A DNA stretch of 64,000 bases from Psammoneis japonica (GCA_008632985.1 QPGO01000140.1:124001-188000); one strand, 5' to 3'. Positions 1-62,815 are shown, counted from the first letter of the stretch. The notes: generated by a model from the sequence alone, not told the origin. Program-made: numbers and translations.

Positions 1-1638
1 CAAGAGGACACCGTTCTGGAGAGGTTCACGCCGCACGAGAAACAAATGCTCTCCACCCCGGCGCAGTTCCTGGCGGCAAATGAAAGTCCGTCCGCGTTGG
101 CCCGTGTGGTCCAATCGACCGAGGATGGGTTGAGGCAAGCCGGGGAAGTGCCAGCCGACTTTGGCGACAAAGCTGGCAGGCGATTCCACGCTGCGGAGTC
201 TATGATTGAGATTCTAAGCCGGAAGCTGGATCAACTCGACGCGTCTCTCGGGGAACTGACCCAGGGGTTTGATGAGGCGCCACTCGCCCCTGCTCTTTGG
301 GGTGCGCTGGCGAGCGTTGCATCCCGGGAAACCGGAACCCAATCTCCGGACCCAGTCGAGCATGTCACACAAGTGGAGACGGGTTGGCGAAACCAATCCA
401 ACAATCTGGTGAGAACTTTCAACGAGAAGTTCCAACACATGCAAGATCGGATGGGATTGACGGCCAGCCGCACTGAGCTGGAAAACATGAAGAACAACAT
501 GCTTCGTGTTTGTACGCAGCTCACCTCAAAGGTCAGGTCGATCGAGTCCCAGTTCGGTTCGGGGTTTGCACCTCCCGGCGCTTCATTCGATCAAGGCTCC
601 GTGGAAGCATGCCTCATGTGCCTGGACCGCGCTGTGAGTGAGTTGCGTGCAAAGTCAGACAAGTCTGCCATTGAGTTCTCGGGGGTTGGCGTGTCATCCT
701 ACGAGGAGTGTCAAGCTTGGATGACACAGCATTTCCCCTCGAGGGCATGCGGGTGCTTGGCTGACATCGTCTTGCTCTTGGACCGGATCAAGGGGATCGA
801 GCCCACCGCTCTGCATCACTTTTTATCTCAGTGGGCCAAGCGAATGAGTGTGAATGTCGCCACCGAGGAAGACGCGCGAACTCTGGCGGGCTTCCAATGT
901 CGCATGCCTCGGATCTTCGACTCAGGATCTGCGAAGTCGTCTCAGACCTTGGGTTTGCACCCCTCTTACTTGGATAAAATCGAGACCCACGAACACTGGT
1001 CTTCGGGCAATGTCGGAACCAAGCACTTCATCGAGGGGAAGATCGCCGCAACAGAGAGCGACATTGTGGAAGACATCAACCAACGCATCAGACCGGGAAC
1101 ATTTGAAAGTCAGGTAGTCCGGGACGCATTGTCAAAATCGGTGGCATTTCTTTGGGCGCTAATTCAGTTTATGGACTCTACTTGTGCATCACTCACCGAC
1201 CTGAGCAAGTTCTCCAAGAAGCAAGCGTGGTCCTTGACTGCCAAATTGACTCACCGCATTTTCGAGGACATCCACAAGGCGCGCTCCGGGGTTTTTACCT
1301 CCATTTCTGGGACGGACCCAGATGCAGTGTGCAGCAAGATTTTGTGGGCGGTGTTTCGGACCCACGACATTGTGGCAGAGTGCACGTCGCTAGGATTTGC
1401 CGACCACCCTTCTGTGGCATCAGAATGCGTCAAGTTTCTGGCTACAAACTCAGGATTCGAGGTGGCAACGGATTTGCAATCTTCGGCACTGACACTAACA
1501 GAGAAAGCCAAGAATGCTAGCTCAGAGGCGAAGTCAGCCCAGGCCCGAGGCGACTCGGCGCACGTCGAGCTGGGCAAATTGCGAACGGAGATTAAGGACC
1601 TGACTCGTCGGCTTAAGGCTCTGGAGAGCAAGAAGTGA
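1..1638 (+). CDS. Gag-like ORF1 of the YR retrotransposon, possibly 5'-truncated by the window edge
   Basis: 530-aa ORF from 46 whose frame is open back to base 1; coiled-coil-like ends; first ORF of the element; Tyr-poor and Cys-rich. Confidence 0.6.
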   Translation, partial: QEDTVLERFTPHEKQMLSTPAQFLAANESPSALARVVQSTEDGLRQAGEVPADFGDKAGRRFHAAESMIEILSRKLDQLDASLGELTQGFDEAPLAPALWGALASVASRETGTQSPDPVEHVTQVETGWRNQSNNLVRTFNEKFQHMQDRMGLTASRTELENMKNNMLRVCTQLTSKVRSIESQFGSGFAPPGASFDQGSVEACLMCLDRAVSELRAKSDKSAIEFSGVGVSSYEECQAWMTQHFPSRACGCLADIVLLLDRIKGIEPTALHHFLSQWAKRMSVNVATEEDARTLAGFQCRMPRIFDSGSAKSSQTLGLHPSYLDKIETHEHWSSGNVGTKHFIEGKIAATESDIVEDINQRIRPGTFESQVVRDALSKSVAFLWALIQFMDSTCASLTDLSKFSKKQAWSLTAKLTHRIFEDIHKARSGVFTSISGTDPDAVCSKILWAVFRTHDIVAECTSLGFADHPSVASECVKFLATNSGFEVATDLQSSALTLTEKAKNASSEAKSAQARGDSAHVELGKLRTEIKDLTRRLKALESKK

Positions 1639-1710
1639 AATTCATGGGGAACGGAGGATGCAGGGGAGCACCAGGTCTCGTTCGACAGGCCAAATGACCT
1701 AAGGCACATC

Positions 1711-2931
1711 ATGCGGGGCAGAAAAGCCTTCTGTTTTCAGGGAGCTTGCTTGATTCTTGCCTCCGGTCCCCCAATCTGGCTCTTGTCATTGCGACCAAGG
1801 GAATGGCCTGCCATTTGTTGCTGCTGCGACGACATCACCAGGTCCCACTGGGGTTCTCTGTTGGCGGAACTGTTCCAGAACCAGCTGAACGCCTCCTTGG
1901 CACGGGTCTCGTGGGCAAGTGTGGAACAACTGGCCAGGCGGGTTGATGTTGCATTCGTGTCGGGCCCACCCTCGTTCCTTGAGTCCGCAGCTCATGCAAT
2001 GCGGACGGGATCTTTGATTGTGATCCCTGTGGGAGCAGTTTCGCGGCGCAGTCTTCTGGGTTTACACCAGTCACAGCGGCGGGACATTGCACATGCGGTG
2101 GTGGGCGGTGTCACTTCCTTTCGGACTGCACTGTTCTGGCGGGGGGTTCCTACGCCGGTCTTTGATGGAGGCCTGCGATGGTCCATTGGGCACATCATCG
2201 ACTGTGAGCCACCCGGGTCGCCATTGCCACAACACCCGAGTGGGGAATTTTACAATGAGGGCGACCATCTCAACCCACAGTTTTTGACCCGACCAGTCGT
2301 GCACCCATCGCATCGGTCGCCGACAGGTTGGGTCACCCGTGCACTGTCTGTGGATGAGATGTTGGCGGCTTGGGATTTTCCCCTGCGTTTCCGAACGCCT
2401 CAGGTGCATCGGGCTTTCGAGCGGGGATTTCCTCTTGTTCCGTTGAATCTTCTTACACTTTTTGTGGAGGCGTTTGTTGATCACACGCCCCGGGATTCGT
2501 TGCAACCTGGGGGCGTGGTGTGTGACAACACGGAGGTCGGGGTCCCGGTCCGCCCAGCTGGAACGTGGCTGCTGACTCTCAGGCACCATTTACCCCACAC
2601 TTGGATCGACGTGTCCCTCATGACGGCGAAAGCTGCAAAGGGGGATGCAGCGGCCCCTCCTTTCCGGTTGTGGGATGGGAGGATCACTTTGCTTTTCCCG
2701 GGATTTGGCAAGGTTTTGCCAGCCCTTCGGGACTTGGCGCACCTGTGGTGGCGGCGAAGGACCCTTCAGTCCTTTCCAGGCTATCTGCGCCGGGAATGTG
2801 GTCCGACTTGGGTCGCCATGCTGGTGATGCAATGCCGGCGTTTTGGGGACGCTGCCGGGCGTCTTCAGGGGGGGGGTTTGCTGCCACCCTCCACTCCCAC
2901 CCTTGCTTCTAGACGCACACCTTGGGGCTGA
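1711..2931 (+). pseudogene. N-terminal pol region (ORF2) of the YR element, possibly a degenerate C5-cytosine methyltransferase-like domain
   Basis: 406-aa ORF; RALSVDEMLAAWDFP resembles DNMT motif IX; frame shifts at the poly-G near 2868-2877 towards RT. Confidence 0.4.
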
Positions 2932-5598
2932 GGTGTTGGCGCAAGTGTTGGACAGCTCCTGGTGGAGTTGGGACCGAGGTTCTTCTCTTTTATTCTGGCG
3001 GTGGCCCACTCCGGAACAGCGGGTGGGGGCTCGAGATGGGATCCAGATGTTTGTCAAAGGCCCACTCCCTCGCAATCGCTGACGGCAGAGAATCCGGGGG
3101 TCTGAGCACGAGATTCTTAGGATGGTGGACAAGATGCAAAAGGTCCGAGACCAAGGTCACATCCATCGTGGGAGGGTGGTTAGTCCAACCGATTATTTTT
3201 GGGTCCCAAAAACCGTCCGTGTGGAACCCCAGAATGGTTGTTTGGTGGAAATCGTTGAAGACGTGCAAATGGTTTATAACGAGACCTCTTCGGGGTTAAA
3301 TGATGCCCTCTGGGCACCCTCTTTTTTCTTGCCCACTCCTGCGTCGGTTTTGGGGTGCATGACTCATGCTGCCTTTTCCGTGGATCTCGACCCAGGCGAC
3401 ATGTTTTTGAACTTCTTCATGGATCCCAACATTCGACCACATGCGGGGATCGACTTGACGCCTCTCAAACCATGTCTCGCATCCCAGGAGTCGACCTCGA
3501 CGGGCACGCTCTGGTTCGAGCGTTGGAACCATCTGTTTGTGGGGATGCGGCCCAGCCCTCACTTGGCGGTGCGGGCATTTTATTGGGCCGATGAGATTGC
3601 CAGAGGCGATCCGAACCGAGTCTCCAATGTCATGGGATGCGACAAGCTGCTCCTAAACTTGCCAGGGGATCCCAACTTCCAGACGGAGAAACCATTTGTG
3701 ATGAAGTGGAGTTCTCGACACAAGGAAATTGCTGGCGACATTAAAACATTTGTTGATGACTTGCGCGGAATGGGGGCTAGTGAGGAATCCACTTGGCAAG
3801 TTGCTCACCAAATGGCCTCACGGTTGCAGCATCTTGGACTGCAGAATGCTGCCCGGAAGGTGCGCCCCCCCCTCGCAGGTTGAGACCGGAGCCTGGGCTG
3901 GCGCCATTTTCCGAGTTATCGATGGGGATGTTACCCAGTCAGTTTCCCAGGCCAAACAGGATAAAGCCAAGGGGATCATCGCAGAACTGCTGGGTTTTTA
4001 CGCCAGGCATCCGGCGGGCTTCCTTCCCACATTTGACTTTAAGGATCTGGAGTGGAAGAGGGGGTTTCTAGTCCACCTTGCGATGACTTGCCCCTTTCTA
4101 ACACCATTCCTTAAAGGAATCCATTTGACCCTCGACTCCTGGCGACCAAATCGAAAGAAGGATGGTTGGGCGATGACTGCGAAAGAGTTCGCAAGCTGGA
4201 TTCACCACCTTGCTGAGAAGCAGGGCCTTGACCCGTCAGAGGTTGCTGAGGGTCTGAGGGATCAACCCCCCCCCTCCGCAGGTCACGGCGGTCCCATGTT
4301 TGTTCATGGATTTGACTGCTGTGTCCCGCGTCACGGAGTCTCCGACCCCTTCCACGGTTGTCATCAGGTCCTCAAAGATCGTCACTGTCCTCTGTGGCTT
4401 TGGTGATGCATCTGGAAAAGGCCTTGGGACCTCCCTGGAAGCAGCGGACGGAACCATTGTCTTTCGGATCGGTGTGTGGGGCGATGATGAACTGGGGAAC
4501 TCCTCCAACTGGAAAGAGCTGTCCAACACGGTGGATGCCATCCAAGAACTTGGGGAGCAGGGGGAATTGACCGGCGCGTGTTTGTTCTTTTTTACGGACA
4601 ACTCAGTTGCTGAAATGGCTTGGCACAAGGGCACCTCGTCCAGCCCTCTGCTGCTTGAGCAGGTCATTCGCTTGAAAACTTTGGAGGCCAAGCATGGGAT
4701 TAGGCCATGTCTCACACATGTCTCGGGGGGACGGATGACAGCTCAGGGTGCGGACTGAGTTTCTAGGGGAGTCTTGACCGAGGGTGTCATGAACGGAGCC
4801 AAGATGCTTTCGTTTGTCCCTCTCCATCTCGGAGCCACATTTCGGTCGGCTGCTCTCTTTGCGTGGGTTCAATCTTGGGCTGGAACTCCAGCTCCGGAAC
4901 TGCTGACCCCCTTGGATTGGCATCAGAAGGGTCATGACATTGCGGGGTGGAGCTGCCCAGCCTACGAAGCTGTCGAAATGCCCCGTTTCAGATCGGGCAC
5001 TTGGGTCTGGGCCCCACCTCCAGCCGCGGCGAGAGCGGCCCTAGAAGAGCTCCGGATCGCAAGGATCAAGCGCCAGACTTCGTTCCATGTGTTCATCTGC
5101 CCACGTTTAATGACTCCGGAGTGGCAGAAACAGTTGCACAAGGCGGCGGACCTGGTGTTTGCCACCCCGGCTGGATCAAGGCCATTCTGGCCAGGTGACA
5201 TGTTCGAGCCCTTGCCAATTGGCCTTCTTTTTCCGTTTGTCTCCTGCAGCCCTTGGCAGCTTCGGGGAACCCCAAAAATGCATGCAATGGAGCGGTCCCT
5301 GCATCGAGTGTGGCCGGATGCTGCGGTGGACGAAAGGAATGTTTTGCGCAAATTTTGTGCACAGTGTGGGAATCTGGCCGGCATGTCGGAAGGCATGGTG
5401 TCCAGGGTGCTGCACTTCGAGAGAAAGCGTGACTTTCCATCTGGGGGGGACTCTGGAGGACGACCCTCAAAACGACAACGCGCAATCTCTCGGGGGGGAC
5501 CGCCCAAGGCTGGACGACAATGCTTGGCACCGGAAGCCTCAAGACAAAAACAAGTTTGTACGGGCTCGCGCAGGGGATCATCTTGTGGTTGCCTTTGA
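2880..5598 (+). pseudogene. Reverse transcriptase, RNase H and MT-like C-terminal domain, frameshifted
   Basis: RT motifs DLDPGDMFLNF, GMRPSP and TFVDDL; RNase H motifs FGDASG, SSNWKEL, FTDNSV and AD*VSRG; WVWAPPP segment; frameshifts at poly-C near 3865 and 4267; TGA at 4756. Confidence 0.85.
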
Positions 5599-6817
5599 GT
5601 GTGACACCTGTGCATTTCACAAGCTTTGCCAGAGGGAGGCATTGCCTTCATCACCTCGAGACGAGGTCACTCTGGCATGTGTTCGAAGAGTGATTTTGGA
5701 CGCGTTTTGGAGCAGGGAATCGACAACAGTCGAAGCAAATGCGTCGAGAGTTGGGAGGGGCCTGGCCTTGTCTGAGCGTCTGGGCCTAACGGGGCCTTGC
5801 CTCGAGCCGGGTCCTCTCCCGCCCTGTGATCACTGTGGCTGTGAAGTCGCCATGCAGATCGTCTTAGCTTCAACGGCGGCGGGAAAACACTCGGAATCGT
5901 ACACTCAGTTTGACACGATCCGAAAATTGCGCACTGCTCACTCCAACCAGGTGCGCGCATTGGCGGAGGCTAATTCGCGAGCTTCAGCATTGGGGGATTT
6001 GGAAGGCAAACAGCATCTGCGCACATGCGAAGACCCGTGTGCTTCTCTGTGGTTCCAGCGATTCATGACCGGATGCAAAAGACGGATGGGCCAAGACTGG
6101 AGGCCTGACAGAGCGACATCGGTCGACGTCATGCAACATCTGTTGCCTCGGGTCGAGGAGAGGGCCCTCCGAGCCCCAGGAGAGGCGGAGAGATTTGTTT
6201 GCCTTGCACGCGGATTGCACTTTGTGGCCAGTTACGTCTTGTCTCTTCGAGGTCCCGAAGGCCCACTTATGGACTTGGGGGCTCTTGTCAGACACCTCCC
6301 AAGACATGCGGATTGTGTTGTCGTCCCTCTTTTGGGCCGAGTCAAGGGAGAGCATGGGGAGCGGCAGCACCTCCTCCCCAGTGTCAACGTCACCAGCTCA
6401 GGTGTCAACCTTCGTTTTTGGGTCGAAACGGCAGTCTCATTACACTGGGATCATCGGCGCACGCGTGGACCAGCGATGTCAAATGTGGCGGGAGAGGTCT
6501 CATCTACGAAAGAGCTCAACGTTTTCTTGCATGAAGTCTTGGGAGACATTTATGAGGACCACCCAAGCCCATTCGCAGCGGACATCACCTCGTTCTCTGA
6601 CACACAGGACAAGTGTGATGTGAGTCGTTCGTTCAGACGGGGTTTGGACTCGCGTGCCATTGCTCAGAAGGTGTCAGAAGATGACATTGACGTTGTCAAC
6701 CGTTGGAAGAAGAAGGAAAGATCAGGTGCGGCACGACCCATGCACAAAATGCGCCAGCACCATGCCAACATTGCCCTTCTTTTGCCATCATTCCTGCGTT
6801 GTGCTGAGGCCATGTGA
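5159..6817 (+). CDS. Tyrosine recombinase of the element, probably inactive because the catalytic Tyr reads His
   Basis: LSLRGPEG (first Arg box), SRSFRRG (H-x-x-R box position), RW, and MRQHHA where the nucleophilic Tyr is expected; overlaps pol in another frame as in DIRS/Ngaro. True start is uncertain. Confidence 0.85.
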   Translation: MPPRLDQGHSGQVTCSSPCQLAFFFRLSPAALGSFGEPQKCMQWSGPCIECGRMLRWTKGMFCANFVHSVGIWPACRKAWCPGCCTSRESVTFHLGGTLEDDPQNDNAQSLGGDRPRLDDNAWHRKPQDKNKFVRARAGDHLVVAFECDTCAFHKLCQREALPSSPRDEVTLACVRRVILDAFWSRESTTVEANASRVGRGLALSERLGLTGPCLEPGPLPPCDHCGCEVAMQIVLASTAAGKHSESYTQFDTIRKLRTAHSNQVRALAEANSRASALGDLEGKQHLRTCEDPCASLWFQRFMTGCKRRMGQDWRPDRATSVDVMQHLLPRVEERALRAPGEAERFVCLARGLHFVASYVLSLRGPEGPLMDLGALVRHLPRHADCVVVPLLGRVKGEHGERQHLLPSVNVTSSGVNLRFWVETAVSLHWDHRRTRGPAMSNVAGEVSSTKELNVFLHEVLGDIYEDHPSPFAADITSFSDTQDKCDVSRSFRRGLDSRAIAQKVSEDDIDVVNRWKKKERSGAARPMHKMRQHHANIALLLPSFLRCAEAM

Positions 6818-6931
6818 CTCGGGACGGTCACGAGCCCTTGGCAACGTCAGGTCCCCGGAGAACAGTCTTCCAGCTTCCTGCTCTCCAGATCGATGTTTTT
6901 GGTGGCCACTGCCCAGGATTCTCATCGGGGG

Positions 6932-8807
6932 GGGATCAGAGCTCGACCCATCTTATTCGGCCTCGGGAGTCGACAAGACGAGGTCTAGGATTACAATGCA
7001 GCACAACACCTTCGACGGCTTCGGTTTTCATGCGGGAAAACTTGGTCTGGCGTGTCTTCGTTCGAGGTGCTCACTTTACTCCCCAGTTGCTGCCCAACGT
7101 CGCGAAATGCCAAAGGGTGTGCTGCTGGGGTTGGCTCTCGAAAACGCCCGAGGTGCCAGTGCTCCGTTGAATTTCCGGAAGAGCCCCTGTGCTGGTGCAG
7201 GACCCTGCGGAGGGTTTGGGTTTCTCCCACCCCCCCTTGCACGGAGTAGAGCTTATGCCGAATGCTCTGCTCCATGAGTCTCCTAAGTGTCGTGAGGTTT
7301 TGTCACTTCTCAGTGGTTCTTGACTAGGATCAATTGAGATCTAGTCCGAAGCGGTCATTTGCTGAGTCAATGCTCGGATCCTCCTCGTGCCCAAGTTTAG
7401 ATGGAGACGGACTGACTCAAACCGACCTCGCTCGATGACTGCGACCTCTCGCTGGATCTGCGACGGAAGCAGGGTGCTTCCGACTCAAGATGACTCGGTC
7501 TAGTCTTCTGACTGTGACCGGTCAAACTTCGGTTTTCTTTTCTCTCACTTTTCCAGCTTTGTTGGAACAGGAACCCTGATCATCGTGACTGGATCACTCA
7601 AGCTCGGAAAAGCATTCTTCTTTTTACCCACCCACCACACCCTGGGATTGGAGCTCGACCCGTCTTGTTCGGCCTCGGGAGTCGATGAGACGAGGTCCAG
7701 GATCACAACGCAGCACAACACCTTCGACGGCTTTGGTTTTCGTACGGGAAAACTTGGTCTGGCGTGTCTTCGTTCGAGGTGCTCACTTTGCTCCCCAGTC
7801 ACTGCCCAACGTCGAGAAATGCCGAAGGGTGTGCTGCTGGGGGTTGGCTCTCGAAAACGCCCGAGGTGCTGGTGCTCCGTTGAATTTCCGGAAGAGCCCC
7901 TGCACTGGTGCAGGACCCTGCGGAGGGTTTGGGTTTCTCCCACCCCCCCTTGTACGGAGTGGAGCTTGTGCCGAATGCTCTGCTCCATGAGTCTCCCAAG
8001 TGTCACAAGGTTTTGTCACTTCTTGGTGGTTCTTGACTAGGATCAATTGAGATCTAGTCCGAAGCGGTCGTTTGCTGTGTCAACACTCGGATCCTCCTCG
8101 CACCCAAGTTTAGATGGAGACGGACTGACTCAAACTGACCTCGCTCGATGACTGTGACCTCTCGCTGGATCCGCGACGGAAGCAGGGCACTTCCGACTCA
8201 AGATGACTCGGTCTAGTCTTCTGACTGTGACCGGTCAAACTTCAGTTTTCTTTTCTCTCACTTTTCCAGCTTTGTTGGAACAGGAACCCTGATCATCGTG
8301 ACTGGATCACTCAAGCTCGGAAAAGCATTCTTCTTTTTACCCACCCACCACACCCTGGGATCAGAGCTCGACCCGTCTTGTTTGGCCTCGGGAGTTGATG
8401 AGACGAGGTCTAGGATTACAATGCAGCACAACACCTTCGACGGCTTCGGTTTTCGCGCGGGAAAACTTGGTCTGGTGTGTCTTAGTTCGAGGTGCTCACT
8501 TTGCTCCCCAGTCACTGCCCAACGTCGCGAAATGCCGAAGGGTGTGCTGCTGGGGGTTGGCTCTCGAAAATGCCCGAGGTGCTGGTGCTCCGTTGAATTT
8601 CCGGAAGAGCCCCTGTGCTGGTGCAGGACCCTGCGGAGGGTTTGGGTTTCTCCCACCCCCCCTTGTACGGAGCAGAGCTTACACCGAATGCTCTGCTCTG
8701 TGAGTCTCCCAAGTGTCACAAGGTTTTGTTGCTTCTCAGCAGTTCTTGACTAGGATCAATTGAGATCTAGTCCAAAGCGGTCATTTGCTGAGTCAATGCT
8801 CGGATCC
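6932..8807 (+). repeat. Tandem 712-713-bp direct repeat, about 2.6 copies: B 6932-7381, A 7382-7643, B 7644-8094, A 8095-8356, B 8357-8807
   Basis: GAGCTCGACC at 6939, 7651 and 8364; the copies are collinear and highly similar; the last copy ends at CGGATCC 8807. Confidence 0.95.
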
Positions 8808-9894
8808 ATGGTCATTTTCAATTTGTCTTTGCACGTCAGCACGTCCATCCATCCAACTCAGTTTGCGCAGCAGAAAGCTGACACCTGATCAGAGTGCACT
8901 CAAGGACCGAGTGCGTCATGGCCATGATGAAGATGCCAATGGACAGCAAAAAATCCTTGCTGACTTGGGGTGGGCTGTCTCTGTCTCTGCAGATGGTTCT
9001 TCACAAACTTCTTTTGTTTTGTTTGCAAGCATGCATTTCACAGCTCTCTTTGCGAGCACTTTTCTTTCAAGGCCAGCTTTGGCTCTGGGTGACACGGAAA
9101 TGTGTGCAAAACCTGTCAAATGGGCCATCCCCCACTTCAGCTTGAGCACCTCTTTTCTTCAATTTTGGGTTTTTTTAATTGTGAGGAGGCAAGTGTGCAC
9201 AAGACGCACCAGCAGAGGCTGGTGTGCACCAAGCGCCAAAAATCTCTGCACACACCACATTTCAGTCTTTTCTGAATGTGTGAGAAGCCATCGCTCTAAC
9301 TTTCCTCATCCACAAGTCACTCAAACAAGTTGTTGGCCAACAACCAATGGTGGGGGGCATGAATGCACACACATGTGCGGAGTGATGTCAGCTGCGCCAG
9401 CACTCCAGCACAGAGACTCTGACTTGGTGACACTGAGGAGCAGCAGCACAACAACAAACAATGGTTTGGGCGAGAAGAGATTCTTGCAGTGCAGTGACAG
9501 CTCACTCTGCTGTTGTTTCTGCGGTGTGTTTGCAATGTTTTCAGTGTCCAGGCAGCCACATGGCCAGCAACCACATGTTGTGTGCCAGGCCATGCCAGAG
9601 AGGTGCACAAATCGTCTGTTGTCACACGCGCAGGATTCCTGTGACATACGCGAATTATGCGCGCGAGCCAACGACACAGAAGCTCCGTTCTCATGGCGGG
9701 AAGATCACAAAAAAGATCGAAAAATCGAATAGCAGGTATAGAGATCACCCTCATTCATCTCCTTCCTCCTGCCCTAGCGTTCGACGTTCGACGTGTATCG
9801 AGGCATCGAATTCTTATGGCAATGATCAGCAGCGGCCTGGTCGGATTCCTCGCTCTGAACATTTCACTTCTTGGAAAGATCGCTTAGCTTCAGG

Positions 9895-10977: not shown

Positions 10978-12295
10978 TTAGTGAGAATAATGGCCCACAA
11001 TGATTGATTTTCTGGTATGCAATTTGCTCCTCAACGAATTCATGGCGGATGTCTGCATGATTTTCTGTCGCACCGCATCACAGCTTTCGTCCACTTTGGA
11101 GAGAGAATCAGATCCATTGTTGTCATAACCCGTGGACATGTCCATGGTGTTCAAAAGAGTCGAAGCGACATAGGATTCCCAATCAAAAGAATCTGCCCAG
11201 TACCGGTAGGGATTGCCCAAAGCATCCGCAGAAGTCAGCCACCCGACAAACAAAAAATATTCAAAGGCAAAGGAGAAAATGGACCAAAAGGCTGCAACAA
11301 AATTTCTCGGGGTTAGATCACGGCTGGCCTCATTCACACGACTATGCTAGACTGCGCGACTTACCTCCTCTTGTCAATCCACCCAAGTTTTCTTCTCTAC
11401 GAATATCCGTGAGGGCCGATGCAAGGAGGGAAATAGCCATGTACATTCTCACCGTCACGTTTACCAATTGTCGATACGACAGAGGCACAGGCACATGAAT
11501 GGGAGTGGCGAGTCCGCCGAGTGCTCCGCGTAGGTCACAAACTTGACCGACAAACATTTTTATCACCATGTCGTTGCAACCAAAAAGATTTTTCTTGCTG
11601 AGTTCCATCAAGAGATTTTGAAACCATACAAGAGGAATAGCAAATCTCTCGCGTGTGTGTACTTTTAGAAACTTGTACTCGGACTCGGTACAGAGTCCGC
11701 GGTCCATGATGGCCTCCAAAGATGAAAACTCGTTTGGCTTCTTCTCGAACACCTCTCCCACTCGAATAGCATGGGCCAAGTTCAACCATCGAATGAGCTG
11801 CATGCGCACGTCTTGCACTTTGGGCAACGACTCTTTGGATCTTGCGTCGGATGCCTCCTCGTCATGCTCAACGTCTTCTACAATCTGTCCCAAATCCTCT
11901 CCTCCTGCAGTATCGTCGTCTCGAATCAAAGTGGAAACCTTCAAGGAAAGATCGCTGACGCCACCAGTGCATTTTCCTTCTGCACAGCGAACATTCCACC
12001 ATCGTCCATAAATTGTCGACGTGTAAAATCCGAGCATCAAACCAAGAGCAGACTGAAATCGGTTGTTGATGAACTGGACCGTTTCGACAAAAGACAAGAA
12101 TTCCACATCCAGCCTTTCTCGATTCACGTCTTTACGATTGAGGTAAACCACGTAAATGACAGCGGTGCAAACCGCAACGGCAAGAAACCATTCCACCCAG
12201 AAAAACTGAAAAATGCTAGCTTCCCAAGTCCAAATCATGCGGAGCCAGTTCAATCTCCACGGTGGGCCAAAGGGATCTTGATATTCTCTAGTCAT
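10978..12295 (-). CDS. Bestrophin-family anion channel; two exons
   Basis: Motifs LGLMLGFY...GRWW, VPVPLSYRQLV and GWLTSADALGNPY; intron 11364-11292 (GTAAGT...TTGCAG, CTAAC branch point) joins in frame. Confidence 0.85.
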
Positions 12296-15600: not shown

Positions 15601-15622
15601 CTTTGTTGGCAGTGTTGCCATT

Positions 15623-51033: not shown

Positions 51034-51064
<31 letters not shown>

Positions 51065-54400: not shown

Positions 54401-55392
54401 GGCCATCCCGTTCATTCTTTAAGCAGCTGTTCCTCTTTGCCACTTCGCTCGAAGCTCGCAATATTCTCAGAGCTCTTTTTGAGCGCACTGAGACAAAGTC
54501 GCAAGAGGAGCCAGCTCCGTACACCGCACGGCTACGATCACAAACCTGCGATCGTGAGAAAGTTAATCAGGAGGAGTTTGAGCGCTACACTGCGACTCAT
54601 ACGTATGCGGACGTCTTGTGTGATTTTGGTTACAAGGCGTTGCCTCCCTTCGAGTACCTGCTCTCGATGGTGCCAACGATTTGTCCCCGATTGTACTCGA
54701 TTGCCTCTTCTCCACTTTATCGAAAGAATAAACTGGATCTGTTGGTTGTCTTGAATGAGTGGACGGATCCAAACATGAAGACGAGAGTTGGTTTGGCCAC
54801 GCAGTTTTTGTTTGGTGCGGACATCGGAGATAAGGTCGCTATTCAGGTACGCACAGGCATTCTTCAGCCTCCGGCTGACACAACTACCCCCATCGTTTGC
54901 TTTGGTTTGGGATCGGGAATTGCACCGTTCCGCGGCTTCTTGCAGCATCGGCAACGACAGCACGAGCAAGGCGCGAAGCTTGGACCTGCGACTCTATACG
55001 TTGGGTATCGTCACGAGTCAATGGATTATTACTTGAAAGACGATTTCGAAGAATGGATGAAATTAGGAGTGTTGACCTGTGTGCATCCCGCCTTCTCTCA
55101 TGATGATCGAGAGAAGCGAGGCGGAAAGCTCTACTTCATTTCAGATCTTATTGGCGATAAACCAAAGGACATGGCCAAGGCATTGCTTCTGGAGGAGGAA
55201 AAAGAAGAGGAAGACAACCAAGTTCATGTGTATTATTGTGGACCTGCACTTGGTATCCCTGAGACCATCCAGCATGCGATGGAGGATGCAGTCAAGCACG
55301 AGGAAGGCGGTGGAATGGACGAAGAAGAGGCAGAAGCCTTGATGGAGCGCATGGTCCACTTGGAGGATAGATTCCATGCAGAATGCTTTTAG
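51447..55392 (+). CDS. hydA: [FeFe]-hydrogenase fused to a diflavin (flavodoxin + FAD + NAD(P)H) reductase; about 1315 aa after repairing two 1-bp deletions
   Basis: [2Fe-2S] IPTLC...GKCGLC...LAC; two [4Fe-4S] CVGCSRCVRAC and CISCGQCTVFCP; H-cluster TSCCPGW, MPCTAKKDE and EVMTCPGGCIGGGG; then YGTQSGTA, RLYSIASS, GSGIAPFRGF and YYCGP. Frame breaks near 52085 and 53301. Confidence 0.93.
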
Positions 55393-55623
55393 TTTCGCCT
55401 GTCCGCTTTGCAGGATGGCTCGGATCGGAGTTGCGACGCCATTGCATGCTACACTTCTGCATATTTTTTATTATAATAAGTTAGCAAATAGTTTTATCAG
55501 GATACTTCGCTTGGTCGGCTTGTTCTACTAGCTACTACAGTACAAGGCGAATGCATTTACCGGTATTGTTGATCGGAGCAACATAATCACAAGCACCATG
55601 AGCGCTGCACACCTTTGCTTGCG

Positions 55624-57090
55624 TCATTGCGTGGTGCGTCCGCCGAGACTGTTCATCGACGACTGACAGAGATAGCGATACTCGTCAAGTGTCATTCCAA
55701 CATCCTTGGCACAGGCGGGCAGCGTGACGAGCTGGCCGTCTTGTTCTTGAACCATTGTGACAAGCACGGTCGCCATGGTCCTCCAGAGCTTGGTACCTAG
55801 ATTAGGATTGGCTTCAGCGTATGAAAAGCACCTCAATAAACTCGAAAGCTGCTGCTCAATCATTCTTCTGGCTTCTTGTGGAGTGTCTAGATCCTTGTAG
55901 GCTCTGGGCAGCTGCCTCTTGAGAATCGAGTGTAAACCCGCACAGCGAGAAGCACCAATGTCAGAAGAATCCACAACCGGCGGCAGCTCTGGATGAGATT
56001 CGCCATTCTGTTGCATACGTATCCACTCGATTGCTTGAGGGGTGATCCAGTTGGAGAGAGTAGTCCATATTCTCATAAAGGCCCGTGGTTCGGGTGGTGG
56101 GAGCGCGTCACCTTCACTAGAGTCAAAGTCACAATCACCGGCTCCTTCCTGTCTCATGATCTCCGCCAACATGTACAACGTTTCCTCGTCATTGTTGCTC
56201 GATACTTCCTCCTCCTCATCATCATCTATTCCCATTGTAACAAGATTTTCTTCCTCTTCCTCGTCTGTTTGCTCTTGTACTTGGTGCCGTCCGTAGAAAT
56301 CGTCGTACAATCCAATTGACTCTTGCCGTTGCTCCTCCATAGCTTCTTGATACTCCGCCGGGGCCATCACCGAGAAGCTCAGGTCAGTTTCAATTCCAGA
56401 CTCCTGATTAGACAAGTAATTTGCTGTTTTAGTACCAGGTTTTGCGCCACTAGCATGAGCTAGCAACTCCGACATTGAAGACAAAATCAGTGGGTCATCG
56501 CTGGAGGAATTCTCTTGCTCGCTACTACTTTGCTTCTTTGAAGTGTCCTTGTTTTCATCAGCCATACTGCTCGGCTTGTATCCTTCAATAGAGTCGTGGC
56601 TGTCTTTTACGTTGGGGGCACACCGGCTTGTAGGTAAACTGCTGACGGGTCGTTCCACCACAAAATCCTTAACAGCGGCAGGTGGCAACAGTTGCGAGTT
56701 TTCTTGTTGCAGTGCAGAGCTGCTCTGCTCATGACTGACAGACGATAATTCTGCTACTTTTGAGTACTTTGGTTTGCGAAGAATACCCTTTACGGGTGGT
56801 TTCGTATCAGCTACAGTCTCGGAAGTCAAAGGATCTCCATTGGAAGCAGCAGCTTGGTGTGTTTCATCAGTCGTTGCACTTGAGAGGCACCACGAATTCA
56901 CTTTTTGTCGCGTTTCTTCCACCATGGTGTTACTCTCAAATACCTTGTTGTCTCTATCCTTGCTTACGCTTGGAGAGCCTCCGCTCTTCCGAATTGTTGG
57001 ACGCACATGTTGCTGCTTCATCATGGCCGTGTTTTGTGTGGGAGGGATAGGCGAGAGCGTTTTGGAGTTTGCAGCGGGACTCAAAACACG
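55624..57090 (-). CDS. Hypothetical acidic protein with a C-terminal domain weakly like the plant RPAP2/RTR1 C-terminus
   Basis: Long ORF with normal composition; disordered acidic N-terminal half; AFMRIWTTLSNWITP and LSSLLRCFSY...LWRTMATVL. Start codon uncertain. Confidence 0.6.
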   Translation of the reverse strand, partial: RVLSPAANSKTLSPIPPTQNTAMMKQQHVRPTIRKSGGSPSVSKDRDNKVFESNTMVEETRQKVNSWCLSSATTDETHQAAASNGDPLTSETVADTKPPVKGILRKPKYSKVAELSSVSHEQSSSALQQENSQLLPPAAVKDFVVERPVSSLPTSRCAPNVKDSHDSIEGYKPSSMADENKDTSKKQSSSEQENSSSDDPLILSSMSELLAHASGAKPGTKTANYLSNQESGIETDLSFSVMAPAEYQEAMEEQRQESIGLYDDFYGRHQVQEQTDEEEEENLVTMGIDDDEEEEVSSNNDEETLYMLAEIMRQEGAGDCDFDSSEGDALPPPEPRAFMRIWTTLSNWITPQAIEWIRMQQNGESHPELPPVVDSSDIGASRCAGLHSILKRQLPRAYKDLDTPQEARRMIEQQLSSLLRCFSYAEANPNLGTKLWRTMATVLVTMVQEQDGQLVTLPACAKDVGMTLDEYRYLCQSSMNSLGGRTTQ

Positions 57091-57299
57091 CATACCGGCC
57101 AGACGCAATCGCACCCAACGGAAATTTTACACGGACAAACGCACTAATGATAAAATTTTGAAATTTTGAATGGCCATTTCCAACTGCTCCTTGGATGCGA
57201 ATTCCGCTTGTTTTCATGCCGGTGGCATGTTTACCATCATGCATCATTGTGAGACTTTGGTGACGCTGCACAGCAGCAAAAGCAAAGAGCATCATTGTT

Positions 57300-58790
57300 T
57301 TGGTGAAGAGTGAAGAGACAGCAACCAGAGTGCAAGGATTCAGTTTGACCGGCGCCACGGCGATGAAAAGCAGGAGATCGTCCATTCTGCAAAAGCTGCA
57401 CATGCAACAAAGGAGCAATCGGAGTGCACGAGAAACCAAGCCTGTCAACAACAATGAGAGTCATCCAAGTCACAGTGCTGCCAAGAAGAAACAGCAAGAA
57501 CAAAAGCCATTGAGTGTCGTTTTGCAGAATGAGAATGAAGTCGAAACCACTCCTCCTGAAGGTTCCAAGAACAAACAATTGCAACCGAGAGGCAGCCACA
57601 GCAAAGCTTCTCCTTCAACAAAAGAGAAACAACCTGCTTCTTCACTGATGGCACTTTTGCCATCTGCAGATTCTTGTTCAAGCAACAAGCGTGCAAAAAA
57701 GAAGCCTCCGGTTGCAGCTTTCAATCATGACGATTAAATTGCATCATGACACCACGTCAAAAATGGAAGCAGAGAAGTTGGGAGCCACTCACCCCCTTGT
57801 AACTTCTCTCCATGCACAAGTTGAGGGGAGTGCAGTTGAGCAGTCCAAACACTTTGTTGTGTGAAATGTCTGAGTTTCCATCATCCGGGAGAGGGTTCAA
57901 GTTGGCGAGCCGACTTTGGTGATTTGTGCGGAAAACATGCTGAGCTCTGTGCACATGGAATCTGGCCCACTTTTGCACCCATGCCACCTTGGATGTCTCA
58001 AGAATGGCACAGGGCAGGCAGATTGTCCAAAACTTTGAGTGGGAACAGGGATGTGTGTGCCACAAACTTGGTCGCTTGTTTCGCGTCGAAGACAAATGCA
58101 TCCACCAACCAGAGCACAAACTGCAGAGCTTGCATGCAGAATTCTGTGGGGCAAATGTCACACAGAGTCCCACCTGGCTAGCAGGACTGGAACCTTTTGC
58201 CATGTCTTGAGCCTGAAGATGGTCGAATGTGTCCAATGGTTGCCAACAAGCCTCCGGAAATGTTGGACAAGGAGTGGGCATGGCTCAATGAGCTCAGCTT
58301 TGGTGCCATTGTTTTTGCAAATCCATGAGACAGCATCAAGCCCCTGCCAGAAATCATTGTGGATGGAGATTTAGATGGAGACCTGTTTTTTGCATGTTGG
58401 AACAAAGAGATCTCAACTCCATTTGGCTCTCCCACCTGAAGACATCCCATTGCCAGCAGAGGACAAGGATGCATCAACTGCACCAACCACCAATGACAAT
58501 TGGTTGAGAGGAACACAAAAGATCATGTTGAGCACTTGTGCTGCAGGTGAGATTCACTCATTGATTGGAAAGCTGTGTGCACTTTCTGCCAAGACATCCG
58601 ATTCATCTGCTCAATGCAACAAGGATCTGGATGCAATTGCATTTGCAAAAGCATTCAAACAAGCACTTGAGTTTGGAGAGCACAGAGGAAAGATTGAGCT
58701 TCCTGTCCATCTTCATGACAAACTTCCTGCAAACCTCCAGAAGCATCCAGCTCCTCTCAAATACCATGTGCCACCTGCCACTGTCTGCAG
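57300..58790 (+). pseudogene. Decayed eukaryotic (RNAi-type) RNA-dependent RNA polymerase-like gene
   Basis: The frame from 58200 reads PCLEPEDGRM...LNELSFGAIVFANP*DSIKPLPEIIVDGDLDGDLFFACW (DxDGD motif within 58362-58382), followed by AFKQALEFGEH; internal TGA and frameshifts. Confidence 0.75.
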
Positions 58791-61542
58791 TGCAGGACTT
58801 GAGTGACACTGCAAGAACCAACATCCAGCCCACTCTCATTGCAGAAGTTGCTGGAGTGAGGGCAAAAGAGCATCTTCTTTTTGTTGTGCAATTTCAACTC
58901 ATTCTTTGACATGTGTTGGATGTTGCAAGTGCCAGTGCACAGAGTTGCACCATTGACCAATGTGCTTTGTTAGAGCAGAAGAAAGAGTGCAGGGTTGTCT
59001 TGCAGCATTCTTCTGTGCCATCTGATGGGGGGAGAAGCAGCCACACTGGCGTTCCGTCTGCTCCAGATGCTGGCAGGAAGTGGCGCTCTCTCTCTCTCTC
59101 TCTCTGGAGACAGCTGGAATGGAGACTGCTTGCCCCCACCCCTGCGCACTGCACTGTTTTTTTTTAGAGGGAGCTTTCCATGGGCCAATCATTGATTGAG
59201 GCCCTTGATCAATGCAAAGCCAACGATTTGGTGAGAATCCGAGCTCAAGCAAGGTGTCCATTTCCACCAAAACCATCAATCAACGGGAGTGTAATGGCCG
59301 GTCAATCAAGAAAACTGATGGACAGACTGCTCCATCTTGCCAGAGCAGAGATCAAGCCATCCACTTGTGAGGTCTGCAGGTCATGTGGAAAGAAGAAAGG
59401 AAGAAACGGCCCTCTGTGTGGATGATGGTGCAAAGGTTTCCACTCTGGGACAACTGCCAGAACAGCTCCTGATTGAAGCAAACCATTCTTGCATGCAGCA
59501 AAGGGCAAGAAGCCTCATGTGGGCATTGCATTTGTTGCTCCAAGGCTTTGAAAAGTCCTCTTGTTGCTTTTTTGAGAAGATGCCTGGAGGATGCAGTTGT
59601 TTGCCACAGAGTTGGTTGAACCAGCACAACCACCAGAGCCTTGTCATGTGCCTCTGAGGGTCTTCATCCACCCACGCTTTTCATGTGTGGTGACTCCATG
59701 GACTCCTGCTGCCTGGCTGCTGCTGGCTGGCCGAACTGACAACCATGGTCTGGAACCCACCCAGGAGGGGGAGGCATCAGAAATGAGCTGAGACCCAGTG
59801 CGGGCACCAGCACACCAAAAAGCTTGTGACTCTTGCAATCAGTTGACAAGAGAAGTGCTGCTGTCATTGCCAAACAGCTGTCTGGGGTTAAAAGCTCTTG
59901 CACCAGAGTCAACCTTGCAGGTGCAGAGAGAGATTGAGTTGCATGACTTGTTGTTGACCCAGATGTGCTCTCTTTTTGGGTCCAAAACTCATTGAGCTCC
60001 TTGAAGCCAACAACAGCACCTGATCATGGTGAGAATCTGCACCCCTTGTGCAATTGAAAAAAACCCCTTTCTGTGGAGAGGGGGGTTGGCCCAAGCAGGC
60101 TCAGGATGAGAGTTGTCAGAAGGCAAAAGGGAGCTTCATCGAGCATTCTGAAATGACAGTGTTGTGGCGGGTTGCCCAAATGCACAGATTGTGTTTGCAA
60201 AAGGAGTGATGAGAAAAACAAAAAGAGCGAGTGTGCATGAGAAGCAGAGGTGAGCCTCTTGATGTTGAAGCTTGGCATGGGAAAGGTTTTCATGGCAAGT
60301 GACCACATCACATTTTGTTGTTCAAAGCTCAAAATCCACCTCGCTGCCCTCGTCATCCTGTGCAGAAACATCTGCACAGTTGAAAAAAATGAAAACAAGT
60401 GCAGAGTGGCACACTGCCACCTGTGGGGAACAGTGCAGCATTTTCAAGCAAGGGTGCATCATGTCAGTGTGACCACTTCCCAAGCAAAGTTTCACACTCC
60501 ATTTTCTGCAAGCCCAACAAAACATGCTCCCCACCTGCCCATCATGTGCCACACTTGCATTTTTTTGTCATGCCACTTTGAGGTTCACCGCTGCACACCA
60601 TCACCAAATTTGGAAAAATGCAAAAGCAAAGGGCTTGAAGAATTCCATCCAATGACGGCATCATGTGCAAGGTCTCAGACTTTTTTTCATCTTTGCCTCA
60701 AATGAACAAGTGTCACATTTTCAACTGTGCAACAACTGTGGGCTTGTGCAGGGTGCCCACTGCTGACAGGACCCAAGCGATGTTTTGTTTGTTGAGAGAA
60801 AGGTGGCACAATTGTCAAGAAAGTCTGCTCTTGTTGCTCAAATCTTGCAATGTGCAGGTGTGAGTTGCAGGCTCAAGGTGGCAACTTTCCATGCAAATGG
60901 CAGCTTTTTGTTGTTTCTTGTGCATCAGATCTTTTCTTTTTGTTGAAATGAAAAGAGCCCCCCTGTTTGTGTTCCTGTGCCTGTGATTGTGCCAGAGGAT
61001 GTTGCGCCAGCATGATTGCACAGTGGCAGTGTGATGTGGGAAAGCTTGTTCTTGTCACAAGTTTTTTTCTGATTTCACAGTTTTTTGATTTGTTGGCAAG
61101 GCAATCTGGCTCTGCAGTGGCCCAAGCGCTGTGCACATGAATTGTGCCAAGACATCAAGAACCCCCAAGCTGGGAGAGCCTAGACTTCCAAAGAGACACA
61201 CCTTGCTCTGCACAACCTTTTGCGTCCTTGCTCCTGCCCCTTCTCTCCCTGTGCCTCTGGCAACCACCACCCGCCAATCTGTCCATCTGCCCACTCTTGC
61301 TGGTGTGGCATGCACACAGCCCACTTGTTTTGGACAAGCAACATGTGTTGTGGCTCTCACAACTTCATTTGATCTCTTTGGCTGCACCCTGATGCATTTC
61401 CTCCCTGGTTTCTGTGCTGTGTTGCTGGCTTGCCCTTTGTTGCAGGCACAACGAGACCTTTCCTGGATTTTTGTGTGGTGTGTGTCCAACGTTCCAGCCA
61501 GCCTCATCCTTTTTACAAAGTCCAGCTTGTGAACTTGCGCTG

Positions 61543-61544
<2 letters not shown>

Positions 61545-61586
<42 letters not shown>
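61545..61586. repeat. (CA)n microsatellite; (GA)n/(CT)n tracts also near 31545, 50822, 51034 and 59086
   Basis: Directly visible dinucleotide runs. Confidence 0.95.
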
Positions 61587-61589
<3 letters not shown>

Positions 61590-62815
61590 GACACAAGTGC
61601 TGCACATGCACAGCTCCTGGCAAGGTCAGGACAGGATTGCCATTTTTCAAATGGACACAACTGCATTCATGTGGCTTCATTTCTCTGACCTCTGACAGCA
61701 CTTGGCATCGCTGAAAAGCTCACCTCAATGTCTTGCCATCTGGTCAGTGAGTGGGGACAATGTTGCCCCCACATTCTGCACAGCTCTCATCAGCAGTGTG
61801 CAACTGTGGACAACATTGCTCAGTGCAGTCAAAAAAGTTGTTCTTCCCCTTGCAACAAACAGCTTCTTTGCTGCTGCTCATGACGGACGATGCTCTTTTC
61901 TGTCGGGGGCATCTGGCACAGAGGAGGTGTGCTGCGTCCAGAAGTCACGTGAACCACCCCCCTGCAGGAAGCTGAAAGATGGCTCTGTTCAATTTTAAAA
62001 AGGTGCAGTGAGCTTGGCTTTTTGGCCAGCAAAAATTGTCAGACTTTAGAAAAATGAACGTGGCATCGCTTGTTGCACCTTGTTGGCACAAAAAGCAACA
62101 AAGAGATTGCTGTGACATGCTGGTGTGTGTGTGCATGTGGGTGAGGGGTGGGGTTGGGGCATTTGAGGGAATGTGACCCTGGTGTTTTGTGCACAGTTGG
62201 TTGAGTGTGTGGTGGTTGTGGCTGTGGCAGCAACTTTCCTTGGTGCAAAGATTTGTCAGCTTCAAAAGTCGGGAAATTGCTGGGGGACTTTGAAAAACGC
62301 TGGTGCCAAGCAAAACAGCTCTCTCCCCTGAGTTGCCATTGCATCAAGTGTGTTGTGTTGTCCTCACACTGTGTTGACTTGCTCTGGGGCTCCCAACAGG
62401 CCAGCGATTGTCTCAGCAGCAGGGTGCTCGCTGGCTGGTGCTGCGCGCTCATGCTGCTGGCAGTCTGTGTCATTGCAGTCGACTGGTGCCCTGCCTCCTC
62501 CTGGCCAAAGCTGTGGGCACTCCTGCAGACATGCCAGAGCTGAGAAAAGCTGCTTTGCAAACAAATGTGCTCCTGCTGCAGAAGCTGCTGATCTCCAAAG
62601 CAACAAGAAGTGTGTGTGTCACCACGAGGATGAAGCGCTGTCGCAGCTCTCAAAAACATGTCAGCAAGATAAGAGCCATACCGTAGTAGAATGAAGCAGC
62701 CACACTGACATTCCAGAGAGTTGTCTTCGTGGAAGTCAGTACAAAATCTACGCGACCTCCCCGTCGCCAATCAACTGTGTCAAGAGCATCAAGAGGGAGC
62801 ATAGTGAGTTTGACC

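Follow-up and report, generated by a model that had tools for sequence, protein, structure and literature searches.

Why is the dinucleotide TpA nearly absent from the transposons and decayed DNA of one stretch of the Psammoneis japonica genome, and present at ordinary levels in the genes among them? The stretch, 64,000 nucleotides of assembly GCA_008632985.1 (QPGO01000140.1:124001-188000), is called the window here, and all positions count from its first letter. A first-pass annotation of the window had proposed a repeat-restricted hypermutation of TpA to TpG or CpA, acting as a genome defence for which it knew no described counterpart. Our analysis makes it highly probable that a real mutational process converts TpA to TpG/CpA in integrated transposon DNA and its relics and spares the genes. 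The term "repeat-restricted" proved too strong: at a likeness cut-off of 90%, several of the TA-free blocks occur as single copies, and a high-copy miniature inverted-repeat transposable element (MITE) is unmutated. The lack of a described system is also outdated, since TpA to TpG/CpA hypermutation is reported, in a preprint, for the chlorarachniophyte Bigelowiella natans (Mettrop et al., bioRxiv 10.64898/2026.01.13.699255).

TpA-free blocks between genes of normal composition

Over the whole window the observed/expected ratio (o/e) is 0.29 for TA, 1.44 for both TG and CA, and 0.67 for CG. Bins of 250 bp hold 7-16 TA in genic DNA, and at sharp edges the number drops to 0-1 in depleted blocks. 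At this bin size, near-cleared blocks occupy 12751-23000, 30001-31500, 32001-33250, 39751-41500, 43501-46750 and 57251-62500, and a seventh block, 8751-9500, is less fully cleared (1-2 TA per 250 bp). With depleted blocks defined by no more than 2 TA per 300 bp, sustained for at least 500 bp, 28,126 of the 64,000 bases (~44% of the window) are included, and the longest intervals without a single TA measure 1,752, 1,306, 1,303 and 1,292 bp. The depleted blocks have TA o/e of 0.00-0.05, TG/CA of 1.6-2.0 and CpG of 0.14-0.64, compared with TA o/e of 0.44-0.63 and CpG o/e of 0.91-0.96 in five genic regions; for the genes lying between blocks, TA o/e is 0.54-0.63. The depletion of TpA with an excess of TG/CA is real and very strong, and this comparison of blocks with genes bears out the earlier description of repeat and relic DNA stripped of TA next to normal genes.

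The share of pyrimidine-purine (Y-R) dinucleotides was 0.222-0.266 over 16 regions. Thirteen of these lie within 0.236-0.255, the outliers being the GC-rich region 1-8750 (0.222), 62600-64000 (0.227) and the 381-bp MITE (0.266). Within this share, TA+CG drops from ~0.09 in genic DNA to ~0.015 in depleted DNA, and TG+CA rises from 0.15 to 0.22-0.24. A constant Y-R share, in which the loss of TA and CG is matched by the gain of TG and CA, indicates conversion by transitions that preserve the purine/pyrimidine pattern. The claim that every large element is stripped stands for the TA-free blocks and needs two corrections: the GC-rich parts of the window (1-8750, and a Copia element at 23011-30124) are depleted only in part, with TA o/e of 0.20-0.21 and CpG of 0.77-0.91, and the small, high-copy MITE is normal in TA.

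The individual blocks differ in length and in how completely they are cleared. The mostly single-copy block 12751-19612 spans 6,862 bp and has 10 TA (o/e 0.02), the other ratios being 0.22 for CG, 1.79 for TG and 1.88 for CA; the single-copy block 30130-31500 has TA o/e of 0.05 and CpG of 0.21; and there are 0 TA in the 1,237 bp of 32014-33250 and 1 in the 1,750 bp of 39751-41500. Nine TA are left in 43501-46750 (CpG o/e 0.14) and 13 in the 5,250 bp of 57251-62500 (CpG 0.21), which holds a decayed MITE copy; the TA-poor block 8751-9700 has 6 (TA o/e 0.10, CpG 0.46). An AT-rich intergenic patch at 39251-39500 (GC 0.32, 31 TA per 250 bp) adjoins the TA-free block from ~39700 and illustrates how sharp a boundary can be. 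A perfect (CA)21 microsatellite lies within a TA-free block at 61545-61586.

Transitions at TpA on either strand

The direction and context of the changes were read from copies of the same sequence. Five repeat pairs were compared over 1,707 aligned sites: two pairs of long terminal repeats (LTRs), two pairs of tandem copies and one 110-bp pair. They differ by 82 events, comprising 32 TG↔CA doubles, 24 CG↔TG/CA, 18 TA↔TG/CA, six transversions and two other transitions. Differing sites fall within Y-R steps in 108 of 114 cases, compared with 44.8% of all sites (p=1.6e-30), and 32 of the 38 adjacent double differences are TG↔CA. The pairs are 90-95% identical in bases and 99.4-100% identical in purine/pyrimidine code. 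TG opposite CA in paired copies indicates that one self-complementary ancestral dinucleotide was changed on different strands.

The pattern recurs in repeats of different kinds. A tandem repeat on the + strand (6932-8807, period ~712 bp, 2.6 copies), at the end of the 1-8750 region, has copies 93% alike in bases and 99.5% in purine/pyrimidine code, and its copies 1 and 2 differ by 10 TG↔CA doubles, 9 TA↔TG/CA, 11 CG↔TG/CA and 2 transversions. The LTRs (19613-19770 and 22819-22977) of a + strand element, hereafter element B (19613-22977; TA o/e 0.04, CpG 0.64), are 91% alike in bases and 99.4% in purine/pyrimidine code, with five TG↔CA doubles, one TA↔TG and two CG↔TG/CA. The 110-bp direct repeats (15623-15732 and 15959-16068) are 90% alike in bases and 100% in purine/pyrimidine code, and sit in a locally CpG-richer, very high-copy stretch.

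A MITE pair and more distant relatives give the same direction. The intact MITE (31633-32013, + strand, ~381 bp with 20-bp terminal inverted repeats) lies inside TA-free DNA and has TA o/e of 0.90 and CpG of 1.49; decayed copies are found at 57992-58194 and 43908-43992, both on the - strand. Between intact and decayed copy, 15 of 15 TA are changed (7 to CA, 7 to TG, 1 to TT), as are 12 of 12 CG. In a nucleotide comparison with three unmutated relatives (L001, L008 and L066), their TA was kept in the window at only 7-10% of sites and read CA/TG at 69/133, 83/131 and 52/84 (52-63%), and the other 15 dinucleotides were kept at 32-68%. As had been proposed, A→G and T→C transitions have struck TpA on either strand: the repeat pairs, the 7 versus 7 split in the MITE and the relatives agree on this, and the TpA context bias in the repeat and MITE pairs is extreme.

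Change after integration, separate from CpG decay

The Copia element (hereafter Copia A) lies on the + strand and is complete enough to date the changes relative to its insertion. It has a 5' LTR at 23011-23286 (TGACAG...CTGTCA), a 3' LTR at 29849-30124 with the polypurine tract GGGGAG just before it, and an intact 5-bp target-site duplication, TTCTG, at 23006-23010 and 30125-30129. The polyprotein frame, 24214-29901, is open over 1,895 codons and matches RVT_2 (2.5e-24). The TG..CA ends of the LTRs, the 5-bp duplication, the polypurine tract and the position of RVT_2 downstream of the integrase place the element in Ty1/Copia.

Over 276 bp, the two LTRs read TA in both copies at 2 sites, TA versus TG/CA at 5 and TG versus CA at 4, with one other difference, and CpG is unaltered in both at 20 of 20 sites. 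If invisible same-direction doubles are assumed to be as many as the visible ones, there would have been ~15 ancestral TpA in the LTR, each changed with a probability of ~0.7 per LTR, which is close to the 76% loss of conserved tyrosine (Tyr) codons described below. Since LTRs are identical at insertion, the duplication is intact and the LTRs now differ at TpA, the change followed integration. The process acts at the DNA level, after integration, and is specific to TpA.

In Copia A ~70% of LTR TpA is gone and 0 of 20 CpG are changed, so TpA loss and CpG loss are uncoupled in time. The two ratios form an age series (TA o/e / CpG o/e), from Copia A (0.21/0.91) through element B (0.04/0.64) to the relic blocks (0.02/0.2), and in old blocks CpG o/e is 0.14-0.23. 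Conversion of CpG to TpG/CpA is a second, slower, ordinary process that accounts for part of the TG/CA excess. A single enzyme for both CpG and TpA changes was considered and rejected on the uncoupling in Copia A. The earlier argument that neither repeat-induced point mutation (RIP) nor decay of 5-methylcytosine (5mC) can account for the TA loss accords with the results: the direction is opposite to that of RIP, and the CpG of Copia A is untouched.

Tyrosine loss from the Copia A polyprotein

The Copia A polyprotein has 1,115 relatives at E≤0.001, the best 71% identical. The motifs quoted in the first-pass annotation are present in its open reading frame (ORF), and the low tyrosine count given there is matched by 18 Tyr in 1,895 residues (0.95%), compared with 3.03-4.52% in the best 120 of the 1,115 relatives. 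Relative to the same 120, Cys is raised to 2.96% (relatives ≤1.61%) and His to 5.01% (relatives ≤4.62%). We then considered the first 60 relatives longer than 1,700 aa among these 120. There are 37 alignment columns with Tyr in at least 80% of the 60. Copia A keeps 9 of these, and in the others Tyr is replaced by Cys (18 columns), His (8) or Phe (2). The loss of conserved Tyr is therefore 28/37 (76%), all 26 Cys and His codons are TGY or CAY, and every other residue class is kept at 80-100%. The possibility that relatives already encode Cys or His at these positions is refuted, as they encode Tyr.

Codon alignment with seven relatives showed that TA at codon positions 2-3 went to TG and TA across positions 3|1 went to CA, with synonymous outcomes prevailing ~10:1; Tyr codons, for which both outcomes are missense, were still 70% lost. 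Given this dominance of synonymous outcomes at positions 2-3 and 3|1, we rejected the idea that all TA loss in Copia A is post-insertion decay. Synonymous TpA was probably already gone from the active Copia lineage before this copy was killed; GC-rich codon usage, or selection acting on earlier hits that were sub-lethal, could account for its loss. A final round would then probably have struck the TpA held by selection. Among the TpA surviving in Copia A, ATAN accounts for 4/73 (224/867 in genes) and NTAT for 8/73 (252/867 in genes); this scarcity of 5'-A and 3'-T neighbours may hint at a preference for ATA/TAT.

Environmental relatives of the Copia family

Metagenomic loci of the family have TA o/e of at least 0.43 in 76 of 80 cases, indicating that the family was ancestrally TA-normal. 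A 2,766-bp locus (L052) has TA o/e of 0.02 and keeps Tyr at 1 of the 26 conserved columns it covers, with His at 11, Cys at 7 and Phe at 7. Another (L056), with TA o/e of 0.31, keeps Tyr at 11 of 22 covered columns, with Cys at 7 and His at 4. Three control loci keep conserved Tyr at 23/25, 25/26 and 23/24. A further locus, L064 (TA o/e 0.34), also has Tyr→Cys/His at conserved columns.

Several metagenomic relatives have CpG o/e of 0.16-0.25 with TA of 0.43-0.71, and this combination of low CpG and normal TA indicates that CpG and TpA loss are independent. Four loci (L067, L057, L005 and L016) have CpG o/e of 0.16-0.22 and normal TA. Set against L052, L056 and L064, the low-CpG loci indicate that hosts of the Copia family differ in the dinucleotide that is eroded.

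Support in reads, copy number and targeting

Support in reads was assessed with exact-31-mer contigs of the public run X1, which reach 315 kb and have a mean word depth of ~60. The single-copy TA-free DNA is present in them, with 1-3 letters per 3 kb that differ. A contig of 6,887 bases spans 12501-15664 (3,164 bases) and reaches into a TA-free block; from its length, its other 3,723 bases would extend into the gene flank left of 12501. X1 record 7 spans 30098-31488 with 1 other letter. The sequence at TA-free sites, which the first-pass annotation had wished to see confirmed, is thus TA-free in the X1 contigs (depth ~60) too, from a run whose platform is not on record. No RNA dataset is listed as carrying the stretch.

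Depth was ~60 at 12501-15168 and 16503-18503 and 75.6 at 30510-31176, which are single-copy at 90% likeness or more. The summed depth was 24,000-33,000 at 15169-16502 and ~71,000-73,000 at the intact MITE, and it corresponds to ~1,000 single-copy equivalents for Copia A and ~10-90 for element B. Variants among the genome copies of Copia A comprise 336 transitions and 31 transversions, CA↔TG doubles included. Fully mutated copies of one family would be only ~90% alike, and old families could hide at the 90% likeness cut-off.

The TpA change is confined to transposons and relics, and adjacent genes are spared; several of the TA-free blocks are not demonstrably transposon-derived. The best fit appears to be that a silencing mark on transposon islands directs the process, possibly in episodes. 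The unmutated MITE inside a mutated block is compatible with episodes, and equally with a recent insertion.

Other elements, open frames and genes

The retroelement-like region 1-8750 (GC 56%, TA o/e 0.20, CpG 0.77) has long + strand ORFs with 0.4-1.1% Tyr. One of them, 3083-3883, has an 'FVDD' motif and 1,721 relatives at E≤0.001 with a typical length of 1,200-1,350 aa; relative to 142 of these, its Tyr is 1.1% (median 3.6%) and its His 3.8% (1.6%). None of the six relatives scanned matched Pfam, and the family is probably an unclassified retroelement polymerase.

For the relics, 120 stop-to-stop ORFs from the depleted blocks were scanned against Pfam at E≤0.01, with one match at the cut-off, one just below it and three faint ones at chance level. 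The first is a class I methyltransferase-like relic at 15015-15470 on the - strand (Methyltransf_31, E 2.6e-06, 27.6 bits with a cut-off of 27), which may be a decayed host or element gene. The second is an integrase SH3-like relic of element B (SH3_retrovirus on 19955-21862, E 2.1e-05, 24.8 bits, below the cut-off of 27). A self-BLAST of the window recoded to purine/pyrimidine found no hidden repeat families beyond the MITE relics (57992-58177 and 43908-43992), matches of 25-35 bases being taken as chance. The intact MITE adjoins CT-rich tracts and a (GA)n microsatellite at 31490-31570.

In TA-free blocks only TGA stops are left, and open frames of 100-780 codons overlap on both strands. The loss of TAA and TAG thus produces long open frames without relatives that are liable to be annotated as orphan genes. 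The notion of missense rather than stops accords with this, TAA/TAG being erased and frames staying open. A 463-codon open frame at 40250-41641 (-) has no relatives and an Atlas recognition of 651, at noise level; it was rejected as a gene and treated as a false ORF.

Genes identified with Pfam between the blocks encode a bestrophin (11342-12298, -), a GDSL lipase (33965-34984, +), a class C G protein-coupled receptor (GPCR; 35919-38486, -, an uninterrupted ORF of 855 codons) and an [FeFe]-hydrogenase fused to flavodoxin/FAD/NAD domains (52052-55392, +), as well as a rhamnosyltransferase-like protein, a CLC channel and SURF6. The relatives of the CLC channel reach no more than 43% identity, and an Atlas comparison of the hydrogenase yielded bacterial clusters only. 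Two unaffected regions served as controls: 33300-39700, with the GDSL lipase and the GPCR (TA o/e 0.57, CpG 0.91), and 46800-57200, with the rhamnosyltransferase-like protein, the CLC channel, the hydrogenase fusion and one unknown gene (TA 0.59, CpG 0.91). The hydrogenase fusion gene has a one-base frame change near 53300-53315 (53293-53374), between '...KRIDSIYS' and 'LDERMVVRKSHEN...', caused either by a genuine frameshift or by an indel in the assembly. An ORF upstream of the hydrogenase frames, 51417-52139, sits in the third frame.

A mutational process and its alternatives

In the process we favour, the change is an A:T→G:C transition at either base pair of the self-complementary TpA, in chromosomal DNA after integration. 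Its rate would be at least about two orders of magnitude over background, judged from one background difference in one LTR pair, and it would run to completion, removing essentially all TpA. No stops are created, as TAA and TAG turn into TGA, CAA, CAG or TGG; missense change (Tyr→Cys/His, Ile→Met/Thr, Val→Ala) is what inactivates the elements, leaving long meaningless open frames, and a slower CpG→TpG/CpA change later depletes CpG in the same blocks. The likeliest chemistry, a tentative choice that we put somewhat short of an even bet, would be that an enzyme deaminates adenine at TpA and the resulting hypoxanthine is copied as G in the following round of replication; mutagenic oxidation or modification of the thymine would be the main alternative. 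The targeting would follow whatever marks silenced or foreign DNA, not copy number alone.

Several observations weigh against this process or parts of it. As TpA is its own complement, deamination of A and modification of T are inseparable from sequence, and the extent is described for a single window. The ~10:1 synonymous outcome means that much of the TA loss in Copia A is selection-filtered history or codon usage and not unconstrained decay, and region 1-8750 has low TA without an excess of TG/CA. TG↔CA doubles cannot be assigned to ancestral TA or CG and are secure as TA only in Copia A, where CpG is untouched. The change of ~70% of LTR TpA with one other difference in 276 bp implies at least a 100-fold excess, on a single background event. 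The high-copy MITE is unmutated, so the trigger is not simply repetition. Finally, reads with the sequence come from one sample (three runs), which may be the assembly's own source, and the platform of X1 is unrecorded.

The alternative that survives best, unlikely but to be taken seriously, is that the mutations are a side effect of a chromatin mark and serve no dedicated defence. T would be modified at TpA by a TET/JBP-type oxygenase (to 5-hydroxymethyluracil, 5hmU, or 5-formyluracil), or A would be modified to N6-methyladenine (6mA); the modified base would mispair or be mis-repaired, giving A:T→G:C, and 5mC in the same domains would give the CpG decay. 5-formyluracil mispairs with G, and 5hmU is enriched at TpA in dinoflagellates. 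The sharing of domains by TpA and CpG loss fits this explanation, as does the mutation of single-copy relic DNA, which suggests domain-wise rather than repeat-wise targeting. However, the two losses are separated in the Copia A LTRs (TpA ~70% gone, 0/20 CpG changed), and hypermutation in B. natans occurs in some lines only, which the authors of the preprint read as regulated.

Much less probable is an artefact of base calling or polishing, in which silenced DNA has a modification at TpA, such as 6mA, 5hmU or a J-like base, that is misread by a long-read base-caller as G or C on a chromosome that truly has TA, and the strand majority decides between TG and CA. A random TG or CA at each site, limited to silenced DNA, would fit such misreading, the one-base frame break in the hydrogenase gene is of the kind that long-read indel errors leave, and the platform behind X1 has no record to set against it. 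Yet the exact-31-mer contigs of X1 match the TA-free sequence and could hardly come from noisy raw long reads, the independent metagenome contigs L052 and L056 have the same Tyr→Cys/His signature, the intact MITE reads normally within a TA-free block, and CpG decay together with the graded series of ages (Copia A, element B, relics) fits real mutation.

Native composition by itself, through foreign origin, codon usage or selection against TA and with no targeted mutation, has a slighter chance still. It draws on the ~10:1 synonymous replacements in Copia A, on region 1-8750 with its low TA and unraised TG/CA, and on the GC of Copia A (56%, with 40-55% in relatives). It leaves unexplained the 26 conserved Tyr that became Cys or His, the concentration of LTR and tandem-copy differences in Y-R steps, the 15 of 15 TA changes in the MITE pair, and the fact that in non-coding relic DNA the gain of TG+CA exactly offsets the loss of TA+CG. 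The TA-free blocks, the LTRs and the Tyr codons contradict it, and it remains a partial contributor at synonymous sites.

Equally slight is the chance of A-to-I hyperediting (ADAR-like, or of the fungal sexual-stage type with its preference for a 5' U) of retrotransposon transcripts, fixed by reverse transcription and integration. A→G with a 5' T/U neighbour matches the ADAR preference cited in the preprint (bioRxiv 10.64898/2026.01.13.699255), and Tyr→Cys, the sense-strand A→G, exceeds Tyr→His by 18 to 8, but that split is not significant (estimated p ~0.08, two-sided). LTRs identical at integration now show 9 TpA-derived differences, the changes also extend to tandem repeats, to a DNA-type MITE and to relic DNA present in single copy, and the strands are about equal outside coding constraint (7 vs 7 in the MITE), so that RNA editing as sole cause is contradicted.

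Returning to the TpA process in integrated DNA, we see about even odds that it is a dedicated defence, like RIP in kind and chemically opposite, found in two or more distant eukaryote lineages, one a chlorarachniophyte and another the intron-poor organism studied here. In such a defence, silenced or invading DNA would be the target of an enzyme, which could be a DNA adenine deaminase or one that modifies thymine, and every TpA would be erased; transposons and integrated viruses would be killed by missense changes without stops, and elements would answer by purging synonymous TpA. If the process is general, it would point to an enzyme, existing in nature and of interest for base editing, that can edit the A:T pairs of TpA in double-stranded chromosomal DNA, and a new force on GC content and dinucleotide bias. 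It would also be a source of long false ORFs in annotation as TAA/TAG vanish, and TA o/e together with a constant Y-R share would be a simple statistic for finding such systems in genomes and metagenomes.

Comparison with known systems

To our knowledge, fungal RIP (C→T) is the only well-known case of targeted chromosomal hypermutation that serves genome defence. RIP acts at CpA, creates TpA and stops, lowers GC, and needs duplicated DNA and a sexual cycle. The process described here has in common with it that it operates on DNA, by transitions only, in a dinucleotide context, is aimed at transposons after integration and leaves genes intact. The direction is opposite, as TpA is destroyed, TG/CA is created, GC goes up and no stops arise. 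The restriction of RIP to duplicated DNA is not seen here, given the single-copy TA-free blocks and the intact high-copy MITE, with the caveat of the 90% likeness. Decay of CpG through 5mC explains the CG→TG/CA part in older blocks (24 events) and cannot remove TpA. ADAR and APOBEC3 (G→A) resemble the process in being deaminase-driven, context-dependent, transition-only means of inactivating parasitic nucleic acids, but their substrates are RNA or the intermediates of reverse transcription, ahead of integration, whereas integrated DNA, DNA transposons and unique DNA are affected here.

Our literature search found no paper on TpA-specific hypermutation of transposons beyond the B. natans preprint (bioRxiv 10.64898/2026.01.13.699255), and the terms hypermut, deamination, RIP and TpA do not occur in the accessible part of a study of diatom retrotransposons (PMC2806351). 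The A:T→G:C counterpart of RIP was first reported in 2026, from one alga and two viral inserts; here the signature is complete on ordinary transposons, and LTR pairs and tandem copies serve as internal clocks that place the process after integration.

In mutation-accumulation lines of B. natans, two integrated viral regions, of giant-virus and virophage DNA, mutate ~1000-fold faster, and 230 of 231 changes are A→G/T→C, all of those on TpA (bioRxiv 10.64898/2026.01.13.699255). The genome has 124 TpA-poor clusters in 94.7 Mb and 324 predicted coding sequences almost without TpA, among which reverse transcriptase and DDE domains are enriched, and an ADAT2-like deaminase was proposed for the hypermutation (same preprint).

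The two cases share the TpA target, the TpG and CpA outcomes and the near-exclusive A→G/T→C change. The context feature is found here in that only 2 of the 82 repeat-pair events are transitions outside TA- or CG-derived steps, and the restriction to transitions in that the Copia A LTRs have 9 TpA-derived differences and 1 other and the MITE pair has 14 of 15 TA changed to TG/CA. Also common to both are the limitation to foreign or mobile DNA with normal host genes and the long-term depletion of TpA with enrichment of CpA/TpG. They differ in targets, which are LTR retrotransposons, a MITE, a tandem repeat and unannotatable relics here and viral inserts there; in degree, TA o/e being 0.00-0.05 here and 0.45 in the B. 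natans region of nucleocytoplasmic large DNA virus origin; and in density, TpA-poor blocks making up 44% of this window, far denser than the 124 clusters of B. natans. CpG decay accompanies TpA loss here, and CpG is not mentioned in the preprint (bioRxiv 10.64898/2026.01.13.699255). Genes of the window run as uninterrupted ORFs of 1.3-2.6 kb, whereas those of B. natans average 8 introns each (PMC13746701, Table 1). The evidence from B. natans is of mutation in real time, and ours comes from sequence comparison, on which the process in this window is probably of the same kind as that in B. natans, in another organism and run to completion on transposons.

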